DNA of 64,000 nt. Origin: a phage. Made by a program: the position numbers and the translations under genes. The DNA lies in sequence record PZ540767.1; one strand, written 5' to 3'. Below are positions 4,584-40,509 of the stretch, one piece after another; position 1 is the stretch's first letter; every line of letters begins with the position of its first letter. A model generated the notes under the pieces. That model was not told the origin of the DNA. It was given only the letters and a program-made list of their open reading frames with translations, and ran no database searches.

Positions 4584-4610
4584 AAGCCCCTTAACCGGGG
4601 CTTTTCTTTA
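4584..4610. terminator. rho-independent terminator, likely bidirectional
   Basis: AGCCCC-TTAACC-GGGGCT hairpin followed by TTTCTTT on plus and preceded by A-run; lies between convergent genes 3697..4578 and 4608..5027. Confidence 0.7.
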
Positions 4611-5027
4611 GTACACCATATCAGGAGTATATTCCAGGAACCGTGTGACAATGGTTCGTTTAGTGTACGTCTTGCCCTTCATATTAGCCAAAGCCTCCTG
4701 CAAAGCCTGGCTTTCTAACTCGGACACTTTAATGTAGTTGGGGGTTTCCTTTTCCCGAGGGAACTCATGTTCCACCTTGTGCCCACTAATTACACCATTA
4801 GCTTCTACATAAAGTGAGACAGCGATGCACCCATTACCTTTCTTAAGTGCTTCAATAACAAGAGCACTAGGGTTACGTTTGGTAAAAGGATCTGCAAACT
4901 CATGGGCTAAGAATTGATCAGCTTTTTGCAGCATGTGGTGCATATCAGCAGATTCAGCCATCACTGCTTGGGCAGCATTGAGAATTCGTTCACGAACAGG
5001 CCCATCATTCATTTCTGTAATTTTCAT
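4608..5027 (-). CDS. hypothetical protein (139 aa)
   Basis: ATG at 5027 overlaps the stop of the upstream gene (ATGA); last gene of a three-gene minus-strand operon. Confidence 0.55.
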   Translation of the reverse strand: MKITEMNDGPVRERILNAAQAVMAESADMHHMLQKADQFLAHEFADPFTKRNPSALVIEALKKGNGCIAVSLYVEANGVISGHKVEHEFPREKETPNYIKVSELESQALQEALANMKGKTYTKRTIVTRFLEYTPDMVY

Positions 5028-5335
5028 TTCTGGTTTTCCTCGAACATTTTCTGCTTCAGGAGATAACCTTCTTTCTCCCAGATCTTTTCGAAGGCATTAT
5101 CATAGGCTTCCTTCCGCCCGATAGCTTCATTGTAACGGGAAGGATCCACACAGGCAGAAGTGCCTTCAACCTTGAAACCATTTTCCATGATGATGATACA
5201 GATGGTTACCAGGTTGAGTTCTGCGAGATCACGATCAGTGTATCCACCATTGCTGTTTTTAATGGCCTCACCAGCATTGATGAAGTACACACCACGGATC
5301 TTGGCTTCGATACTGGATTTACTTACGGTAGTCAT
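5024..5335 (-). CDS. hypothetical protein (103 aa)
   Basis: ATGA overlaps with both neighbours; no recognisable motif. Confidence 0.55.
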   Translation of the reverse strand: MTTVSKSSIEAKIRGVYFINAGEAIKNSNGGYTDRDLAELNLVTICIIIMENGFKVEGTSACVDPSRYNEAIGRKEAYDNAFEKIWEKEGYLLKQKMFEENQK

Positions 5336-5580
5336 ATGGATTCCTTTAAATAAATTTCGGGAAGATACTCTACAAAATATCCTAACTTTTGTTTAGTTGA
5401 GGTATCTGTACCTTTTACTAATCTTTCTACTTCAGTCCTTAGATGAGATTCAATCGCCCAAACATCAAGGTCTTCTAAAGAAACACCTTCAGGTGGTCTG
5501 TGAAGAATACTATCTACAGTGATGTAGCCATTGTGAGCAAACACCTTAATGACACTGAAGCCTTGTTTATCTGTATGCAT
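5332..5580 (-). CDS. hypothetical protein (82 aa)
   Basis: ATG at 5580 preceded by GGAGTAAACCA RBS; first gene of the three-gene operon. Confidence 0.5.
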   Translation of the reverse strand: MHTDKQGFSVIKVFAHNGYITVDSILHRPPEGVSLEDLDVWAIESHLRTEVERLVKGTDTSTKQKLGYFVEYLPEIYLKESI

Positions 5581-5596
5581 TGGTTTACTCCAGCTA

Positions 5597-5621
5597 AAGA
5601 AAAGCCCCTCCGAAGAGGGGC
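5597..5621 (-). terminator. rho-independent terminator downstream of tRNA cluster
   Basis: GCCCCTC-CGAA-GAGGGGC hairpin; A-run on plus strand gives a T-tract after the hairpin on the minus strand. Confidence 0.55.
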
Positions 5622-5798
5622 ATCCTAAGCATTTTACGTCTGCTAGACGAGGCAGGCGGTAATAACTAAGTATCTCTTACGAGTAAAGGTTGATAGCCAT
5701 ACTTAGTATTACTAATAACAGATTAGGTTACGGATCATAAACCTTGGTATGACAATTCCATAATCTGTTACACGGTCTTCCGGTAGCGAGTCGGAAGT

Positions 5799-5875
5799 TG
5801 GCTGGAGCATCTGGATTCGAACCAGAGAATGTCGGTATCAAAGACCGATGCCTTAACCTACTTGGCTATGCTCCA
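5799..5875 (-). tRNA. tRNA-Gln (anticodon TTG)
   Basis: Cloverleaf folded by eye on reverse complement: acceptor TGGAGCA/TGCTCCA, anticodon loop CTTTGAT, T-loop TTCGAAT, encoded CCA. Confidence 0.7.
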
Positions 5876-5878
5876 ATT

Positions 5879-5968
5879 TGGTGGAAGGTGAAGGATTCGA
5901 ACCTTCGGGCGCATCTCTGCACCTCCTGATTTCAAGTCAGGTACAATCGGCCTCTCTGACAACCTTCC
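5879..5968 (-). tRNA. tRNA-Ser (anticodon TGA), long variable arm
   Basis: Acceptor GGAAGGT/ACCTTCC, anticodon stem CCTGA/TCAGG with loop CTTGAAA, long variable arm, T-loop TTCGAAT, encoded CCA. Confidence 0.7.
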
Positions 5969-5974
5969 TAAATT

Positions 5975-6061
5975 TGGTGGGGGAAGATGGAGTTGAACCA
6001 CCCGAGCTTCTTAGGCAACAGATTTACAGTCTGTCCCGCTACCTCTACGGTCTATTCCCCC
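5975..6061 (-). tRNA. tRNA-Tyr (anticodon GTA), long variable arm
   Basis: Acceptor GGGGGAA/TTCCCCC, anticodon stem ACAGA/TCTGT with loop CTGTAAA, T-loop TTCAACT, encoded CCA. Confidence 0.6.
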
Positions 6062-6066
6062 GAATT

Positions 6067-6143
6067 TGGTCACCACGTAAGGATTCGAACCTTAGACACC
6101 TTGCTCCCAAAGCAAGTGCTCTACCAGACTGAGCTACGCAGTG
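6067..6143 (-). tRNA. tRNA-Pro (anticodon TGG)
   Basis: D-arm TAGCTCAGTCTGGTAGAGC, anticodon stem CTTGC/GCAAG with loop TTTGGGA, T-loop TTCGAAT, encoded CCA. Confidence 0.7.
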
Positions 6144-6209
6144 TAATTAGCCCTCTACTGTCGCCATCCAGTAATCCAGTTGGAATCGAACCAACACAGA
6201 GGGGTTATT

Positions 6210-6284
6210 TGGCGATGGGACTGGGACTCGAACCCAGCTGTCATAGATTAACAGTCTACCGCTTCACCGTTTAGCTATCCCATC
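6210..6284 (-). tRNA. tRNA-Asn (anticodon GTT)
   Basis: Acceptor GATGGGA/TCCCATC, anticodon loop CTGTTAA, T-arm CTGGG-TTCGAGT-CCCAG, encoded CCA. Confidence 0.6.
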
Positions 6285-6579
6285 TTATTAATTAAGACAC
6301 TCTGTTATCTGCCGATCCGTGTGGCAGTACGGAGTGATAACACATTGAGATTAGGGTATGAACCTGTTCAATGTTGAGTGCCCTAATTAATAAGCCCCTG
6401 TAAAGTAGGGGCTACTCCGAGTTCGATAACCTGGTTCTGGTTCCAGGGTACTCCAGCTTTTAGACCTTTGTACATAACAGGACACTGCCTGTGATCTGAA
6501 ATACCTTGTTGGGGTATGGCAACAGAATCAACATCGCAACACGCTTCTTCTGTTCTAAATACACTCGTGAATGTATTTA

Positions 6580-6605
6580 AAAAAGAAGCCCTAGCGAACT
6601 AGGGC
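6580..6605 (-). terminator. rho-independent terminator after 6660..7280
   Basis: GCCCTAG-CGAA-CTAGGGC hairpin with T-tract on the minus strand (AAAAAGAA on plus). Confidence 0.55.
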
Positions 6606-6659
6606 TAATGCAGGAATCCAATCCGAATCTTCGCTGGATTTAGTTATGCCATAGCTAAC

Positions 6660-7280
6660 TTAGTTAGACAAGTGCATTTGATTAATGATTTTAGCAACAG
6701 ACTGATATTTAGCCGCTTGCTCAGGATCATAGTCAGGAAACAGACTGGAAAAGTCAGGCTCCTTGAAGGTGATCATGTTCTTGAGGAACTTACCTTCTGG
6801 GTACTCCTTACCTTCAATGACAGTGGTTTTAGCTACTTTGATGTAAGCACGAGGGTATTCACCTTCAATGGTGAGTTCATCATCACCAAAGCCCATAGCC
6901 CAGTAGTAAGACAGGGCATCTTCCACTTCATCTTCATGACGAATGAACTTAGTCATATTAGATTCATGAACCAGGTCATAGATCTTATCAGCATCGAAGC
7001 CAGCAACATGAGCCAGACCATAAGCTACGGTAAGAATGTCACCAATAGCATCAGCCAGTTGGATCATGTTTACTGGACCAACATCAGCATTCGTTAGGCG
7101 TTTCTGCAAATGTACCTGTACCATCATGTCAGGATTACTGGCTTCAATGGCTTCAACTGATTCTTCAAGGCACAGCTTTGCCTGTTTTCTGATAGCATTG
7201 ACATTAGGATTGGAGAGATCGCCTTTAGGGTTACCAAAAGCAATATTAAGTTCAGCTACTTTTTCGGCATTGGACTTCAT
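6660..7280 (-). CDS. MazG-like nucleoside triphosphate pyrophosphohydrolase
   Basis: 206 aa; EESVEAIEA (EExxE) and IGDILTVAYGLA motifs resemble MazG-type all-alpha NTP-PPase; AAGAGG RBS. Confidence 0.55.
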   Translation of the reverse strand: MKSNAEKVAELNIAFGNPKGDLSNPNVNAIRKQAKLCLEESVEAIEASNPDMMVQVHLQKRLTNADVGPVNMIQLADAIGDILTVAYGLAHVAGFDADKIYDLVHESNMTKFIRHEDEVEDALSYYWAMGFGDDELTIEGEYPRAYIKVAKTTVIEGKEYPEGKFLKNMITFKEPDFSSLFPDYDPEQAAKYQSVAKIINQMHLSN

Positions 7281-7336
7281 TTGTATGGCCTCTTTCTGGT
7301 TTAATACAACAAATTATTTACTAAGGTTAGAACACT

Positions 7337-9598
7337 ATGAACGATGAAGATCAGAGCGTAAGTGTAGCTTACCATGATCAACCTGTAGGCATCGAGACAG
7401 GATGGAAGAATCCACCTACTCTATCGATTCTTAAACAGGATCTGACCAATGCTACGCCTATTCATGATACTCAGACCGCTAAGATAGCGGAGTGGGAACG
7501 CTACCGTAAAGGTAAGACGACTACCCCTAAAGGTGAGGGGCAATCTAAAATTCAGCCTAAGCTTATTCGTAAGCAGGCTGAGTGGCGTTATGCTGCTTTG
7601 TCTGAGCCATTCTTATCTACCCCGGACTTATACAACATTAACCCAGTAACTTGGGAGGATGTTCCTGGTGCCAGACAAAACAGTTTAATTCTTAATAACC
7701 AATTCCAGACACAAATTGATCGTGTTGCTTTCATTGATGCCTACGTTCGTAGTGCAGTAGATGATGGTACGATCATTGTTCGTGTTGGCTGGGATTTTGA
7801 AGAAAGAGAAGTTCCTAAACAGGAGCCTGTATACTCTTTCTCAGTTGCTGCTGACATGATGGATATCTATCAAAAGATGGCACAGGTTGAGCAGGAAAAT
7901 CCTGTATACCTCTTAAATTATCCTCAGCAATTACAGGATGGTTACGAGATTCTCAAGAGTACAGGGATCCCTTATGCACTGACTCCTATTGGTGTAGCTA
8001 ACACTACCGAGATGAAGACAATTAAGAACTGTCCTACGGTAGAAGTCTGTGATTTAAATAACCTGTATGTAGACCCTTCTTGTAAGGGTGACCTGGATAA
8101 CGCTAAGTTTGTTATCTATTCTTTTGAGACGTCCCTTGCAGAACTTAAAGCAGATGGGCGATACAAGAACCTGGAGCAGATCAATGTCTCGAACAGTTCA
8201 CCTCTCACTGAGCAAAACTATGAAGCACCTAATGACCCCAACTTCCAGCCGGAGGGTAAACCTCGAAAAAGAATTGTTGCTTATGAGTATTGGGGATATT
8301 GGGATACTGATAATTCTGGTTTGTTACGCCCTATTGTAGCAACCTGGGTTAACGGTATATTAATCCGTCTGGAAGAGAACCCTTTCCCGGACAAGAAGAT
8401 TCCGTTTGTCTCAGTTCCTTACCTGCCTGTAAAAAACTCTATCTATGGCGAACCAGATGCAGAACTGCTAAAGGATAACCAGGATATCATCGGTGCAGTA
8501 ACCAGGGGTATGATTGACTTGCTTGGTAAGTCAGCTAACTCTCAAACTGGTTTTGCTAAGAACATGCTGGATGAAACTAACAAGCGTAAATTCCAACGTG
8601 GTGATGATTATGAGTTCAACCCTGGTACTGATCCCCGTGTAGGTATTCATACCCACACCTTCCCTGAGATCCCACAGTCTGCTCAGTTTATGCTTCAGCT
8701 TATGAACACTGATGCTGAATCATTGACTGGGGTTAAATCATTCTCTGGGGCAGAAGGTATTTCTGGTGCTGGTTTAGGTCAAACAGCTGCTGGTGTCCGT
8801 GGTGCATTGGATGCTGCTTCTAAACGTGAGCTTGGTATCCTTCGTCGTTTATCCAATGGCCTCATTAAGATTGGTCGTAAGATCATTGCAATGAATGCTG
8901 AGTTCCTGGATGAGGAAACTGTAGTACGTATTACTGAAGATGAGTTTGTGCCTATTCGTCGTGATGACTTACCAGGTAACTATGATCTTCGTCTTACCAT
9001 CTCTACAGCTGAGGATGATCAGGCTAAAGCTCAACAGCTTGCTTTCATGCTGCAAACCAGTGCTCAGACACTTGGCCCTGACTTCAGTAAGTTGTTCCTT
9101 GCTGAAATTGCACGCCTGAACAAGATGCCTGATATGGTTCGTAAGATTGAGCAGTATCAGCCTCAACCTGATCCGATGCAGCAGATGATGCAGCAGAAAC
9201 AACTTGAACTGCTTCAAGCTCAGATCAACCTTACTAATGCCCAAGCTATGGCTGAAGGTAGTAAAGGTCAGCTTAACCAAGTTAAGCAGGGTACTGAGAT
9301 GGCTAAAGCTGGTCAGATCCAATCCCAGACTGACAAGAATAGTCTCGACTTCTTGCAGACTCAGAATGGTGTCAAACATCAACAGGCTCTGGAGATGGAA
9401 CAAGTTAAGGGTGATACCTTACTTGCTGCCCAAGCTCTTAAACAGCAAGGCACTCTGGATCAGATTCAGGCACAGCATCAATCTGGTTTACTCCAGCAAC
9501 TTGCTAATACCAGGCTGAACCATAATAGCCAGCTTCAGTTGTTAAGAGCACAGAGGGATTTAAATCCTCCTACTCAAAGCACTGGTAATAACTCGTAA
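7337..9598 (+). CDS. portal protein (N4 gp59-like by size and synteny)
   Basis: 753 aa; first gene of the head module, two genes upstream of the capsid gene; Gln-rich C-terminus. Confidence 0.7.
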   Translation: MNDEDQSVSVAYHDQPVGIETGWKNPPTLSILKQDLTNATPIHDTQTAKIAEWERYRKGKTTTPKGEGQSKIQPKLIRKQAEWRYAALSEPFLSTPDLYNINPVTWEDVPGARQNSLILNNQFQTQIDRVAFIDAYVRSAVDDGTIIVRVGWDFEEREVPKQEPVYSFSVAADMMDIYQKMAQVEQENPVYLLNYPQQLQDGYEILKSTGIPYALTPIGVANTTEMKTIKNCPTVEVCDLNNLYVDPSCKGDLDNAKFVIYSFETSLAELKADGRYKNLEQINVSNSSPLTEQNYEAPNDPNFQPEGKPRKRIVAYEYWGYWDTDNSGLLRPIVATWVNGILIRLEENPFPDKKIPFVSVPYLPVKNSIYGEPDAELLKDNQDIIGAVTRGMIDLLGKSANSQTGFAKNMLDETNKRKFQRGDDYEFNPGTDPRVGIHTHTFPEIPQSAQFMLQLMNTDAESLTGVKSFSGAEGISGAGLGQTAAGVRGALDAASKRELGILRRLSNGLIKIGRKIIAMNAEFLDEETVVRITEDEFVPIRRDDLPGNYDLRLTISTAEDDQAKAQQLAFMLQTSAQTLGPDFSKLFLAEIARLNKMPDMVRKIEQYQPQPDPMQQMMQQKQLELLQAQINLTNAQAMAEGSKGQLNQVKQGTEMAKAGQIQSQTDKNSLDFLQTQNGVKHQQALEMEQVKGDTLLAAQALKQQGTLDQIQAQHQSGLLQQLANTRLNHNSQLQLLRAQRDLNPPTQSTGNNS

Positions 9599-9667
9599 TT
9601 TATTTAAAACTATAGGCAGGAAGGGCAATTTGTTGTATTGTCCTCCTGCTTCTTTCATGAGGTTTCT

Positions 9668-9982
9668 ATGAACATCAATAATCTCGACAACGATATAAAA
9701 AAGTATAAGCAACAGGTAGCACTGGGCGAAGCTTTAGAACGTCTGGAGGTTAATCCAGATTTTCGTATGCTCATTGAACTCAACTATCTGGGAACTCATG
9801 CTTTGGATCTGGTTTATTCACGTACTCGTGATATGACCCCAGATAATGAAATCGCTCGTAAGATTGATGCTGTAGCTACCTTTAAGCAATATCTGGATGA
9901 AGTAAAAGATAACCGGGCAACGGCTACTAAATCTCTCAGAGAAGCGGAGCAGACCCGAGATGAATTTTACGACGAGGACTAA
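9668..9982 (+). CDS. hypothetical head-module protein
   Basis: ATG at 9668 with GAGG RBS (ORF track begins at a TTG at 9638); between portal and scaffold candidate. Confidence 0.5.
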   Translation: MNINNLDNDIKKYKQQVALGEALERLEVNPDFRMLIELNYLGTHALDLVYSRTRDMTPDNEIARKIDAVATFKQYLDEVKDNRATATKSLREAEQTRDEFYDED

Positions 9983-36341: not shown

Positions 36342-36809
36342 TTACTTAGCATTGGCTGATTCCTCGCCCCATAAGGCTGCATATGCTGCCAGATCTTCAA
36401 AGTTATCCAGCTTAAATTCACCCTGGTTTGCACGGACAATTTTCAGTAGGACTTGAATGAGCCACCCATCAGCCGGGGTAAGATCCTTACCACGAATCTT
36501 ATTGAACAGCTCAATGACCAGTGGAATGGAACGTTCACCTTCTGCATTATCATAGGTAACTGCACGATCCTCTAAATGCCCAGCAGCAGCCAGTAGTACC
36601 TTGTGGGCACTGACTGTTGTATCTACTGGTTTAGGTTTAAGATCTTCAAGCTGTGCCTTTAGGTCAGTTATAGCTTGCTCATACTTTTTAACCTGGTTTC
36701 CCCAGTAAACTTTTTTATGCTCTGCACAAGACATACCTAAGTAGTTCTTAGCCTCATGCAGACACTTTTCTGCATAAGCAAGAGAGCGTTTTAATGATCT
36801 TTTACTCAT
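36342..36809 (-). CDS. hypothetical protein (about 156 aa)
   Basis: ATG at 36809 with AGGAAA RBS (ORF track begins at a GTG at 36866). Confidence 0.45.
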   Translation of the reverse strand: MSKRSLKRSLAYAEKCLHEAKNYLGMSCAEHKKVYWGNQVKKYEQAITDLKAQLEDLKPKPVDTTVSAHKVLLAAAGHLEDRAVTYDNAEGERSIPLVIELFNKIRGKDLTPADGWLIQVLLKIVRANQGEFKLDNFEDLAAYAALWGEESANAK

Positions 36810-36866
36810 TTGGATTTCCTTTGCAAAGAATTCACAGAGTGCCCGGAAGGGCACCCCACAAAACAC

Positions 36867-38597
36867 TTAAGCCTGACAGCTTAAGCATTCATCCTTAACA
36901 ACCACACCACTTCGTGAGTAGACGTAGTAAACAGACAGGATTTCTTCATCCAGTACACAACGAGTCATCAACTCTGAGATCAGATCTTCTGATCCATCTT
37001 CAGGTACGAAGAAGTTCAGGGACTGACCTTGGCAGATATGTTTCTGACGTAAGCTGGCACGACGTAACAGGACTCGCTGATCCATTTCAAAGGCAGTCTT
37101 AAATACCTGCTTCTCGTGGTCATCAAGCCAGTCAACGTGTTGTACTGAGCCTACATGGTTAATGATATCGTTGATGGTTTCTGCTGAGTACACTCCACGT
37201 TCCTGCATGAGTTTGTAAATCTCAGGCACGATACGACTGAGCTGCCCAGCAGCAGAGCTGGCTTCAAATACCATTCCAGGATCCGGGAACCAGGATTCAG
37301 ATACACCACCCATTAACAGGGCTGTGCTCTTGGTAGGTGCAATGGCTGTACGGTGAGTATTACGTACACCATGACCTTCACACCATTCTGGTTCACCCAT
37401 GACTTCTGCCATCCACTGAGAAGCTTTGAGGCTTTCATCATGGATATGCTTGAAGATCTCTTGGTCGATAAATTGAGCTTCCAGTGACTCGTAGGGAATA
37501 CGCTTCGATTGGAAATAGGTACTGAGTCCCATTACACCTAAGCCAATTGCTCGGCCTTTGATGGTAAAGTCTCGTACTTTTTCTAAGCCCTCAATACCAT
37601 CACTAACTTCGATGAACTCTGAGCACAAGCAGTCCAGGAAAATAGTGGAATAGAATACTGCTTTGCTGGTTTTAATCTTATCCCAGTGAACCAGGTTCAA
37701 TGAGGACAGAATACAGCTATAGGTCAGATCCTTGGATGAATGCAGCATGATTTCGGTACACAGATTGCTTGCCTTAAGCATCAGGTCACGGTCTTTGTAC
37801 ATTGCAGGACGATGGCGGTTAGCCTTGTCTATGAAGTACAGATAACCCTTACCTGTCAGCATTTTGACATGCACAGCATCTTCGAATCGCTGGTTTGCTT
37901 CTGCATCACCAGCTTTCAGTTTCTCAACGAAACTATCTTTAATGATCCAGCCATAGTTCTTACCATTAGGATCGGTCTTCAGTGAGTTAAGGCACTCATA
38001 GAAATCCCCATGCTCGATATCGAGATAGGCACCAACAGAACCACGTCTGTTACCTCCCTGGCTTACCTTGCTGGTACAAGTGAAGAAGTCATCAATAACT
38101 TCCTTAGCACCATTAGCAATGCCACCAGTGCTGATCTTGGCACCACGAGGTCGGATATCCGAGAAGTCTGCTGAAGTACCAAATCCATATTTGGACAGGA
38201 TTGCAGTCTCTCGTAAGGCTGAGTAGAAGCCATCAATGCTATCTGCCACTACCTGCCCAGAGCAGGACACAGGCATACCACGATCGGTTCCTGTATTAGC
38301 CAGTGCTGGTGTAGCGGGTGACAAGATGCCATTCCACATAAGATCGAAGAATGCTTTTTCAAGTTCACCACGATAAAGCTGTGGTACATGACGTGCCAGA
38401 GTGTGTGCAATCTTCTGGTGACGTGCTCTTAATGAGCCTTCACTCTCGACGATGTACTTACTCTTGAACATTTGCCATGCTTGAGTTGTATACCAATCAG
38501 GGAGTAATCCCTGTGCTTGTAACTTCTTACGCTCGGCACTAAGTGCTTCGAACTCAGTAGCGACTGAAGTTTCTACTCCTGTAGGTTTAAACGACAT
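36867..38597 (-). CDS. nrdA: ribonucleotide reductase large subunit
   Basis: 576 aa; NLCTEI active-site region, IAPTKS motif, C-terminal ECLSCQA cysteine pair; AGGAGAG RBS. Confidence 0.85.
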   Translation of the reverse strand: MSFKPTGVETSVATEFEALSAERKKLQAQGLLPDWYTTQAWQMFKSKYIVESEGSLRARHQKIAHTLARHVPQLYRGELEKAFFDLMWNGILSPATPALANTGTDRGMPVSCSGQVVADSIDGFYSALRETAILSKYGFGTSADFSDIRPRGAKISTGGIANGAKEVIDDFFTCTSKVSQGGNRRGSVGAYLDIEHGDFYECLNSLKTDPNGKNYGWIIKDSFVEKLKAGDAEANQRFEDAVHVKMLTGKGYLYFIDKANRHRPAMYKDRDLMLKASNLCTEIMLHSSKDLTYSCILSSLNLVHWDKIKTSKAVFYSTIFLDCLCSEFIEVSDGIEGLEKVRDFTIKGRAIGLGVMGLSTYFQSKRIPYESLEAQFIDQEIFKHIHDESLKASQWMAEVMGEPEWCEGHGVRNTHRTAIAPTKSTALLMGGVSESWFPDPGMVFEASSAAGQLSRIVPEIYKLMQERGVYSAETINDIINHVGSVQHVDWLDDHEKQVFKTAFEMDQRVLLRRASLRQKHICQGQSLNFFVPEDGSEDLISELMTRCVLDEEILSVYYVYSRSGVVVKDECLSCQA

Positions 38598-38599
38598 GC

Positions 38600-39664
38600 T
38601 TACTCTCCTGGTTTCAATAAAGCTGACAGATCACGGGCACCAGATAGCTCAGTAGCTAAGTTCTGGTTAAAGCCTAATTTATGCTTGGCCCAGTTACGGG
38701 TGTACTGCAACTGAGTACCAGCAAAGAAATCTGCAAACTTATAGGAAGACAAGGAGGTATAGAACCAACTGGAGATAACGCCTGATTCCTGCTCGAACAT
38801 GTTCGGCATACCCAGACGATTCAGCACCACGTTCACACGATCACGAATGAAGTGCTGCATTTCTTCTTTGGTTACTACACGGATGGTTTCAGGAGCCTTG
38901 GCAAAGATACGTTCGATCATAGCGAACTCATGATCATGAACATCTTTAGCCATCTTCCAGATAGCATCAGCTAATGCTTCCTGTTTGGCTTCATCCATAT
39001 TGCCAGCTTCAATACGTTCCTTTTTACAGGTGTTATGAAGCCAGGCAGAGAACATGCTGTGATAGTTTTCATCTTTGGCTGAACCGTCGATACCTGCCAC
39101 AAAATGGGGGATCAACTTAAAGCCAGGACGGCTGAATGATTTGAAGAATGCAAATGCTGAGAACAGCATCACACCTTCGAGGAATGCTAACGCTGCTGTA
39201 GCTTCCAGAGCATCACCAGAAGACGCTTGTTCGTCGATCCATGCAATATGCTTGGACAGGTCTTCGTCACGCTTCCAGGTGGTGTAGAACTCATCTGTAG
39301 CCAGATCCAATGACTGATTAATCAGATCATAGAATGGGGCATGAGAGTTAAGCTCAACCATAGCGAATACAGCACAGGCACGTTGAACGTGAGGACGAGG
39401 GAACAGACGCTGGATACGTCCACCCCACATCTCTTCACCACCGATCATTAACTCATACTGAGTCAGGACGGTCTGGAGAGTGAGGATACCTTCACGTTCA
39501 CCTTCAGTTAGTTTGTTGTGGAAGTCACCAACGTCTTCCTCTACACCCAGTTCTTCAGCAGGCCAGAAGATAGCCATCTGGCTAGTGGCTGCTTCGATAG
39601 CTTGGGGGTAGTCGATGACGTAAGACTCTGTTGGAGTCTCAATACGTGAGAGAGGTTTAGTCAT
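38600..39664 (-). CDS. nrdB: ribonucleotide reductase small subunit
   Basis: 354 aa; ferritin-like di-iron carboxylate protein pattern; 2 nt downstream of nrdA. Confidence 0.8.
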   Translation of the reverse strand: MTKPLSRIETPTESYVIDYPQAIEAATSQMAIFWPAEELGVEEDVGDFHNKLTEGEREGILTLQTVLTQYELMIGGEEMWGGRIQRLFPRPHVQRACAVFAMVELNSHAPFYDLINQSLDLATDEFYTTWKRDEDLSKHIAWIDEQASSGDALEATAALAFLEGVMLFSAFAFFKSFSRPGFKLIPHFVAGIDGSAKDENYHSMFSAWLHNTCKKERIEAGNMDEAKQEALADAIWKMAKDVHDHEFAMIERIFAKAPETIRVVTKEEMQHFIRDRVNVVLNRLGMPNMFEQESGVISSWFYTSLSSYKFADFFAGTQLQYTRNWAKHKLGFNQNLATELSGARDLSALLKPGE

Positions 39665-39750: not shown

Positions 39751-40509
39751 TTATGACTTGGTGAGTGCTGCCCAGCTAACCGGGAACAGAGGTTCCACAA
39801 TAGCTGCTACAGCATGGGCCAGATCCTGAATTTCCTGCTGTGCATGAGAATCAGAACGCTTGTTGAAGAAATTAGCAAAGGCCAGCAAGTTACCTGTCCA
39901 AATCCAGTTAACCATAGCACCTTGAGGCAGTACGAAACGTGCTTGCTCAGGGGCAACACCATCTTCAATCATCTTCTCATAAAGAGCTACTGCCTCTTGA
40001 GTATGGTAGATGTATTGGCGTTTCCAGTAGTCGTTTGCTTCATGGATACCAGCACTACCTTGCTTGATTGAGCCTTCTGGTTTCTGGCGGAATTCAGGGA
40101 TGAAGATCTCAGGAGTACTGCTGATATAACGACGAGACTCTTCATTCTCAACCAGTCCCTGCTTATGTTTGAAGCACTGGGTACGGATAGGAATTGGAGC
40201 CTTCATACGCAACGTGATTGCAGTATGGGCAAATGGTGTCCAGTGAACAGCCTGATGACGGATACGATCATAAAGCCATTCTGCTTCTTCTTTGCCAGAA
40301 GTAGAGTAGTTATCTGATCCCTCTTGGATCATGTTGATAATTACAGCTTTATCTTTACTGGTTACACCATTAGCCAGGAAACGGATAAGACTGGCATCCT
40401 GTTCAGGGGTAGTGACCTTTTTCAGTGGGCCAAATGAAATACGAGCTACATCTACTACACGTTGATCATCACCCATGTGATCAATGTACTCTGCTACTTG
40501 TTGGATCAT
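39751..40509 (-). CDS. thyX: flavin-dependent thymidylate synthase
   Basis: 252 aa; ESRRYISS and FFNKRSDSHAQQEIQDLA segments match ThyX signature regions; GAGGTAAG RBS. Confidence 0.7.
   Translation of the reverse strand: MIQQVAEYIDHMGDDQRVVDVARISFGPLKKVTTPEQDASLIRFLANGVTSKDKAVIINMIQEGSDNYSTSGKEEAEWLYDRIRHQAVHWTPFAHTAITLRMKAPIPIRTQCFKHKQGLVENEESRRYISSTPEIFIPEFRQKPEGSIKQGSAGIHEANDYWKRQYIYHTQEAVALYEKMIEDGVAPEQARFVLPQGAMVNWIWTGNLLAFANFFNKRSDSHAQQEIQDLAHAVAAIVEPLFPVSWAALTKS

Follow-up and report, generated by a model that had tools for sequence, protein, structure and literature searches.

The question posed by this locus is which nucleotide is hydrolyzed by the product of a MazG-like gene located on the minus strand, at 6660..7280, of a phage sequence (record PZ540767.1), and what the hydrolysis might do for the phage. 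The whole stretch of DNA that was analyzed, referred to here as the window, is 64,000 nucleotides (nt) long. We suggest that the gene product is a nucleoside triphosphate (NTP) pyrophosphohydrolase of the DR2231 type, likely with dUTP or a similar nucleotide as its substrate, an explanation that as a whole we give about an even chance of being right. An earlier reading of the DNA (the sequence-only reading) had placed a MazG-like pyrophosphohydrolase here and had quoted the motifs EESVEAIEA and GDILTVAYGLA. Both are present in the translation of the open reading frame (ORF), as residues 39-47 and 80-90, respectively, and the coordinates are exact.

Megablast placed the window among ~76-kb Klebsiella phages, a group that includes HS106, P19-618, FBKp27, GADU21, and P184. 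FBKp27, which is N4-like, is classified in RefSeq in the genus Efbeekayvirus of the Schitoviridae. The phage of the window is itself an N4-like member of the Schitoviridae, and the window contains an ORF for a 3,560-amino acid (aa) virion RNA polymerase (vRNAP). The MazG-like protein is 100% identical to unnamed proteins of HS106 and P19-618 and 97.5% identical to FBKp27 gp25, which is named "putative nucleoside triphosphate pyrophosphohydrolase" in GenBank and "MazG-like pyrophosphatase" in RefSeq. Since proteins of near-identical phages already carry such names, the MazG-type identification of the gene is known from public records and that made in the sequence-only reading is not new.

Family membership of the MazG-like protein

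The MazG-like protein almost certainly belongs to the all-alpha NTP pyrophosphohydrolase superfamily (MazG/HisE/dimeric dUTPase). Residues 32-108 matched the Pfam family PRA-PH (PF01503) with 31.1 bits against a cutoff of 21.3, the Pfam family MazG-like (PF12643) was matched with 24 bits, just below its cutoff of 27, and PHROG 2144 ('MazG-like pyrophosphatase') matched residues 1-184 with an E-value of 1e-57. An NCBIfam scan of the protein gave no match. The family is large, as tblastn returned 342 phage records with E<=1e-5, and an exhaustive profile search returned 1,567 cluster representatives (clustered at 50% identity) at E<=1e-3, with 207 of them reaching E<=1e-10; the majority of the matches extend through profile position ~180. 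From these relatives a broad profile (A2) was made with 59 diverse representatives, alongside a narrow profile (A1). Taken singly, the 59 relatives match PRA-PH (38), MazG (22), and MazG-like (21). For ten diverse relatives, no cluster member had a name.

Sequence comparison makes the DR2231-like (COG4696-type) branch the best placement within the superfamily. When the protein was searched as a single sequence against the PDB, DR2231 of Deinococcus radiodurans was the only significant relative (E 1.2e-5, query residues 3-112). With the A2 profile the match to DR2231 reached an E-value of 9.3e-9 and the next MazG-type matches were weaker, including AF_0060 (6.5e-3), SSO3215 (0.025), 3nl9 (0.078), and E. 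coli MazG (0.13); all other MazG-type entries, among them a MazG-related protein, were at 6.5e-3 or worse. The corresponding search with A1 was weaker than that with A2. Together with the PRA-PH and PHROG matches, the DR2231 match bears out the identity that the sequence-only reading had assigned to the protein. A homologue, P0044, carries the JGI name 'predicted HAD superfamily Cof-like phosphohydrolase', which we take to be an old label of COG4696. The entries given in PMC4837373 for a comparable 152-aa protein, from the N4-like phage phiAxp-3, are cd11530/COG4696/pfam01503.

Two narrow family peptide patterns taken from A1 were used to search 185,579 bacterial and archaeal genomes, and none of the 32 pattern matches was confirmed by tblastn. 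The family thus appears to be viral, and its absence from cells is only suggestive because the two patterns are narrow.

Conserved residues and proposed mechanism

In an AF2 model of the protein (pLDDT 89.7), core helices at residues 4-14, 27-48, 72-93, and 97-109 form the helical-bundle core of the superfamily, and the core (residues 1-115) aligns with DR2231 residues 15-119. The sequence-only reading had argued for an all-alpha fold from the EExxE and GDILTVAYGLA motifs, which agrees with the helical core of the model and with the alignment of E39, E40, and E43 with DR2231 E46, E47, and E50. Six residues are invariant in all 59 of the diverse relatives (E40, E43, D81, G88, K164, and K167), and D77, N12, Q33, L166, and P175 are conserved in at least 90% of them. 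The second acidic motif has the form DxxxD. Its D81, present in 59 of 59 relatives, aligns with DR2231 D82; D77, kept in 57 of the 59, aligns with DR2231 H78; and A78 aligns with DR2231 E79, so that the position of the classical glutamate is an alanine or glycine in the family. It is plausible from these alignments that the D77 carboxylate is the functional equivalent of the glutamate in ExxD. The conserved acidic residues E39/E40/E43 and D77/D81 are the predicted metal ligands.

By comparison with the family, the gene product would be a Mg2+-dependent pyrophosphohydrolase that converts NTP to NMP and pyrophosphate. The carboxylates probably hold two metal ions that activate a water molecule for attack on the alpha-phosphate, in line with the two-metal mechanism for DR2231 that Mota et al. 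2016 name in their title, and the invariant K164 and K167 probably bind the leaving pyrophosphate. The active form is probably an oligomer, as in other members of the family: 3nl9 forms a dimer, and the PDB entries for DR2231 hold several chains each.

Outside the catalytic motifs, the protein has features of differing distribution. The loop at residues 48-70, where pLDDT falls to 78, occurs in the clade of enterobacterial N4-like phages and Ackermannviridae and not in the short family members of 153-175 aa. Within the helix-4 motif, S107, N108, and K/R111 are conserved. The short tail of DR2231, DGKQLKPEGWRPAD, aligns weakly with the GKFLKNMxxFKEPDF block of the family (DR2231 residues 126-145, the second domain of the A2 match). 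The last ~9 codons differ outright between the window (…KIINQMHLSN, 6660-6690) and FBKp27 (…KKLGVGVA, 8686-8715), the rest being 97.5% identical, and the extreme C-terminus of the protein appears to be replaceable.

The module at residues 116-160, a helix and beta-hairpin, had no match among solved structures and is not covered by any Pfam model. This unmatched insertion and the DxxxD form of the second motif could mark a virus-restricted MazG subfamily with a substrate other than dUTP, which we regard as improbable. Candidate substrates for such a subfamily might include signaling or defense-related nucleotides, such as an alarmone, a viperin product, or the precursor of a cyclic nucleotide, and also nucleotides that are removed to reprogram the host pool. 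If that is the case, a gene widespread in N4-like phages and Ackermannviridae would be a counter-defense or takeover enzyme.

Evidence for a functional gene

The gene is real rather than a chance ORF and is under strong purifying selection. Across 197 codons compared with FBKp27 there were 34 synonymous and 5 non-synonymous differences (pN/pS ~0.04), and this value, along with the many homologous phage records and cluster representatives, is the basis of that conclusion. Two plus-strand ORFs that overlap the gene, 6672..7097 and 7036..7347, were rejected as shadow ORFs, as the A2 profile gave an E-value of only 0.67 there and the purifying selection is in the minus-strand frame.

The sequence-only reading had also credited the gene with its own terminator, and such an element is indeed present. 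On the same strand, a GC-rich hairpin spanning 6606..6587 (AGCCCTAG-TTCG-CTAGGGCT), with its start 54 nt beyond the stop codon, is followed by the T-tract TCTTTTTT, and the RefSeq record for FBKp27 has an annotated terminator at the equivalent position. Terminator-like sites in the region numbered 6, compared with 1.5 +/- 1.3 in shuffled sequences. Upstream of the gene, a sigma-70-like promoter match at 7341..7313 was not above chance (1 found versus 3.7 expected).

Substrate of the enzyme

If the protein is an enzyme of the DR2231 type, which nucleotide does it hydrolyze? We tentatively favor dUTP as the preferred substrate, at somewhat under an even chance, and a similar pyrimidine or a non-canonical dNTP may take its place within the same explanation. 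The protein would then serve as a dUTPase-like sanitizer of the nucleotide pool, keeping uracil out of the phage DNA and supplying dUMP to the phage thymidylate synthase. Three lines of reasoning point in this direction. First, the reported activity of DR2231, the nearest characterized relative, is confined to dUTP, and this protein has been crystallized with dUMP. Second, the phage makes dTMP from dUMP, with a flavin-type thymidylate synthase and both subunits of ribonucleotide reductase encoded in the window, and yet it has no recognizable dUTPase. Third, the Ackermannviridae orthologue lies among replication genes, and the T4 gp56-type dCTPase/dUTPase is reported to be lacking in that family (PMC12115623).

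The second of these points draws on several searches. No ORF in the six frames of the window resembles the E. coli Dut sequence used as the query, and no second MazG-like gene was found among the same ORFs. Neither a dUTPase nor a deaminase for dCTP or dCMP appears in the RefSeq annotation of FBKp27. The MazG-like protein itself is helical, which does not fit the beta-rich fold of a canonical trimeric dUTPase (Dut).

An alternative is that the enzyme is a house-cleaning or pool-shaping (d)NTP pyrophosphatase of broad or otherwise different specificity, acting on dGTP/dCTP or on oxidized or aberrant dNTPs. The family-level evidence is the same for this alternative as for the DR2231-type explanation, cyanophage MazG is reported to prefer dGTP/dCTP, and the DxxxD variant and the insertion conserved at residues 116-160 suggest a pocket that may not be the same as in DR2231. 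The nearest characterized relative by a wide margin is nevertheless dUTP-specific, and the canonical MazG entries (E. coli MazG 3cra, SSO3215, and the iMazG type) gave E-values of 0.025-0.13 or no match. We consider this alternative rather unlikely.

The homologues found throughout the Ackermannviridae raise another possibility, namely that the enzyme is a dTTPase or dCTPase that excludes a canonical dNTP from modified DNA, comparable to T4 gp56 or to the dTTPase encoded by phages with 5-hydroxymethyldeoxyuridine (hmdU). The DNA of Ackermannviridae carries hypermodified thymidine derived from 5-hmdU (PMC5889632), a dTTPase is a known product of hmdU phages (PMC8989533), and T4 gp56 is in the same superfamily. 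A role of this kind is unlikely in the phage studied here because thymidylate synthase is present, so that the phage makes dTMP, and the annotation of the near-identical FBKp27 includes no modification gene, be it for a hydroxymethylase, a kinase, or another enzyme. Moreover, the two cited papers mention no MazG-like gene, and T4 gp56 was rejected as a close relative of the protein given an hhalign probability of 34%. Overall, we hold involvement in DNA modification to be highly improbable.

Returning to a DR2231-type enzyme that acts on dUTP, several points weigh against it. Family membership does not predict substrate specificity in the superfamily, the identity to DR2231 is only ~26% over the core, and the fourth acidic ligand is one residue off (DxxxD versus ExxD in DR2231). 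In the literature searched, no enzyme of the exact subfamily with the 116-160 insertion has been characterized. DR2231 was the top match when Foldseek was used to compare the monomer model with the PDB, but the match was not significant (E 0.075, TM 0.2-0.3); we attribute this score to the modeling of a single chain, as an oligomeric helical bundle is completed by the partner subunit. The gene is located among late structural genes, away from the replication genes. The Klebsiella host has its own Dut, and a phage dUTPase is therefore not strictly required.

Genomic setting

The MazG-like gene is part of a minus-strand island (4608-7280) that also comprises the terminator, five tRNA genes, and three small ORFs (Table 1). 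The terminator separates the gene from the tRNA cluster, which is on the same strand and downstream, as the sequence-only reading had it when it placed the gene beside tRNAs. The island sits between plus-strand genes for terminase and a gp67-like protein and the plus-strand late block that runs from portal to vRNAP. Pectobacterium phage CB1 has the same layout, with its MazG-like gene (gp87) beside the portal gene.

Table 1. Features of the MazG-like gene, its island, and the nucleotide-metabolism genes in the window
Feature	Position	Strand	Basis
CDS of the MazG-like protein, 206 aa including stop, ATG start	6660..7280	-	ORF list, profile matches, pN/pS
Shine-Dalgarno AGAGG, 8 nt 5' of the ATG	7289..7293	-	Read from sequence
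Helical MazG/PRA-PH-like predicted catalytic core, residues 1-115	6936..7280	-	AF2 model, DR2231 alignment
Putative metal-binding motif EExxExxE, residues 39-46	7143..7166	-	Alignment to DR2231
Lineage-specific loop, residues 48-70	7071..7139	-	Alignment; pLDDT
Second acidic motif DAIGD (DxxxD form), residues 77-81	7038..7052	-	Alignments to DR2231
Helix-4 motif VHESNMTKF, residues 104-112	6945..6971	-	Shared with DR2231 (VHRANLSKA)
Conserved helix and four short beta-strands, residues 116-160	6801..6935	-	Inserted relative to DR2231
Tail motif GKFLKNMITFKEPDF, residues 163-177, with invariant K164 and K167	6750..6794	-	Conservation in 59 relatives
Clade-specific C-terminal tail, residues 181-206, lower-confidence predicted helix	6663..6740	-	AF2 model, FBKp27 comparison
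Intrinsic terminator, 8-bp stem, TTCG loop, T-tract	6577..6606	-	Terminator scan
tRNA cluster Asn-GTT, Pro-TGG, Tyr-GTA, Ser-TGA, Gln-TTG	5799..6284	-	ARAGORN; Rfam 37.8-65.3 bits
Small island ORF	5580..5332	-	PHROG 29724
Small island ORF	5335..5024	-	PHROG 322
Small island ORF	5027..4608	-	No match
Flavin-type thymidylate synthase (thyX in FBKp27)	39751..40509	-	PHROG 85, 3.7e-57; FBKp27 annotation
Ribonucleotide reductase, large and small subunits	36867..39664	-	PHROGs 30939/84 and 86; FBKp27 annotation

This location bears on the proposal of the sequence-only reading that the gene is a candidate for counter-defense. In that role the enzyme would destroy a signaling nucleotide, such as (p)ppGpp or one made by a defense system (e.g., the viperin product), or otherwise assist in host takeover. 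The placement of the gene with tRNAs in a small accessory island outside the replication module fits such a role, as does the analogy with Atd1 of Pectobacterium phage PcCB7V, a phage MazG-like protein that hydrolyzes ppGpp and blunts the toxicity of TIR-STING and retron-TIR (bioRxiv 10.1101/2022.06.09.495361). The searches, however, gave the proposal no support. A PADLOC scan returned no match for the MazG-like protein. Close homology to Atd1, judged by the presence of its phage among the homologues, was not found, as PcCB7V is absent from the best 60 tblastn records; these hold 14 of the 16 Pectobacterium matches, all from N4-like phages. Atd1 is likened in its description to the E. coli MazG catalytic domain, and E. 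coli MazG has an E-value of only 0.13 to the family. The homologues in Ackermannviridae sit with replication genes. We therefore think it very unlikely that the gene functions in counter-defense.

The tRNA block has some features of its own. Two more terminator-like hairpins occur on the same strand, one at 6393-6413, between the terminator of the MazG-like gene and tRNA-Asn, and one at 5604-5621, just past tRNA-Gln. Since they flank the tRNAs, the block appears to be bracketed as a transcription unit of its own. Between tRNA-Pro and tRNA-Asn, where FBKp27 carries a sixth tRNA (Asp-GTC), the window has 66 nt of unrelated sequence (6144-6209, minus strand) in which neither ARAGORN nor Rfam found a tRNA and which holds a T-arm-like GGTTCGATTCC on the minus strand. 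A tRNA in the 66-nt slot may have decayed or been replaced, or the slot may hold a fragment of one. In the non-coding stretch past the cluster, the minus strand has a sub-threshold Rfam match (5592-5734) to STnc100, an enterobacterial small RNA, with 24.2 bits (E 0.01), where the gathering score is 47. This match overlaps the terminator at 5621..5604 and is probably due to chance or driven by the terminator.

Elsewhere in the window, a 174-aa ORF (36342-36866, minus strand) lies directly downstream of the gene for the large subunit of ribonucleotide reductase. It matched PHROG 474 'phosphofructokinase' (2.2e-19) over residues 81-170 only and is annotated as hypothetical in FBKp27; the 'phosphofructokinase' label looks doubtful.

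Significance

As a discovery the identification of the gene has little value, given the names in the public records of near-identical phages and a PHROG of the family's own. The placement of the protein in the DR2231-like branch rather than with canonical MazG does mean that it should not be credited with the published functions of cyanophage MazG or Atd1. With more than 1,500 representatives at 50% identity, the family is large, and it has a conserved insertion and two invariant lysines; the searched literature contains no biochemical characterization of any member of the PHROG 2144 family. An assigned substrate would apply to a gene carried by many phages under development for therapy and biocontrol, with hosts in Klebsiella, Salmonella, E. 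coli, Pectobacterium, and Dickeya.

Comparison with known systems

Canonical MazG proteins (E. coli MazG, cyanophage MazG, and Atd1) and T4 gp56, which falls in the Pfam family dUTPase_2, share with the phage protein the all-alpha NTP pyrophosphohydrolase superfamily and a metal site of the EExxE type. E. coli MazG and T4 gp56 differ from it in having only marginal sequence similarity, and the reported substrates of this set vary from all (d)NTPs to dGTP/dCTP, ppGpp, or dCTP/dUTP. Similarity is also marginal for 3nl9 (Exig_1061/YP_001813558.1), a DUF2166 putative NTP pyrophosphohydrolase. That protein is all-alpha, with six helices in a segment-swapped dimer (PMC2954211), and has no beta module.

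The best match among solved structures is DR2231 (PDB 2yeu/2yf*/5i0m), a MazG-like NTP pyrophosphohydrolase with dUTPase activity. It shares with the phage family the EExxE motif, the aspartate of the second motif, a YG...GxDAD segment, VHxxNxSK, and a GKxLK...P tail. The two differ in that DR2231 has ExxD where the phage family has DxxxD and contains neither the 23-residue loop (48-70) nor the ~45-residue helix and beta-hairpin module (116-160). DR2231 is moreover a cellular protein, whereas the phage family looks viral.

The closest counterparts are the PHROG 2144/COG4696-type phage enzymes that make up the family itself, which include FBKp27 gp25, CB1 gp87, the Ackermannviridae orthologues, and phiAxp-3 ORF41. 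The orthologues in Ackermannviridae are ~48% identical to the MazG-like protein, are 288-294 aa long, and have an extra C-terminal extension of ~100 aa that matches no Pfam family. Their genes are located in the replication module, right after those for the regA translational repressor and the clamp loader (9001-9867 in Salmonella phage ST-W77), and the phiAxp-3 gene has rIIB and a helicase gene as its neighbors (PMC4837373). In nothing essential does the MazG-like protein of the window differ from the other members of this family.
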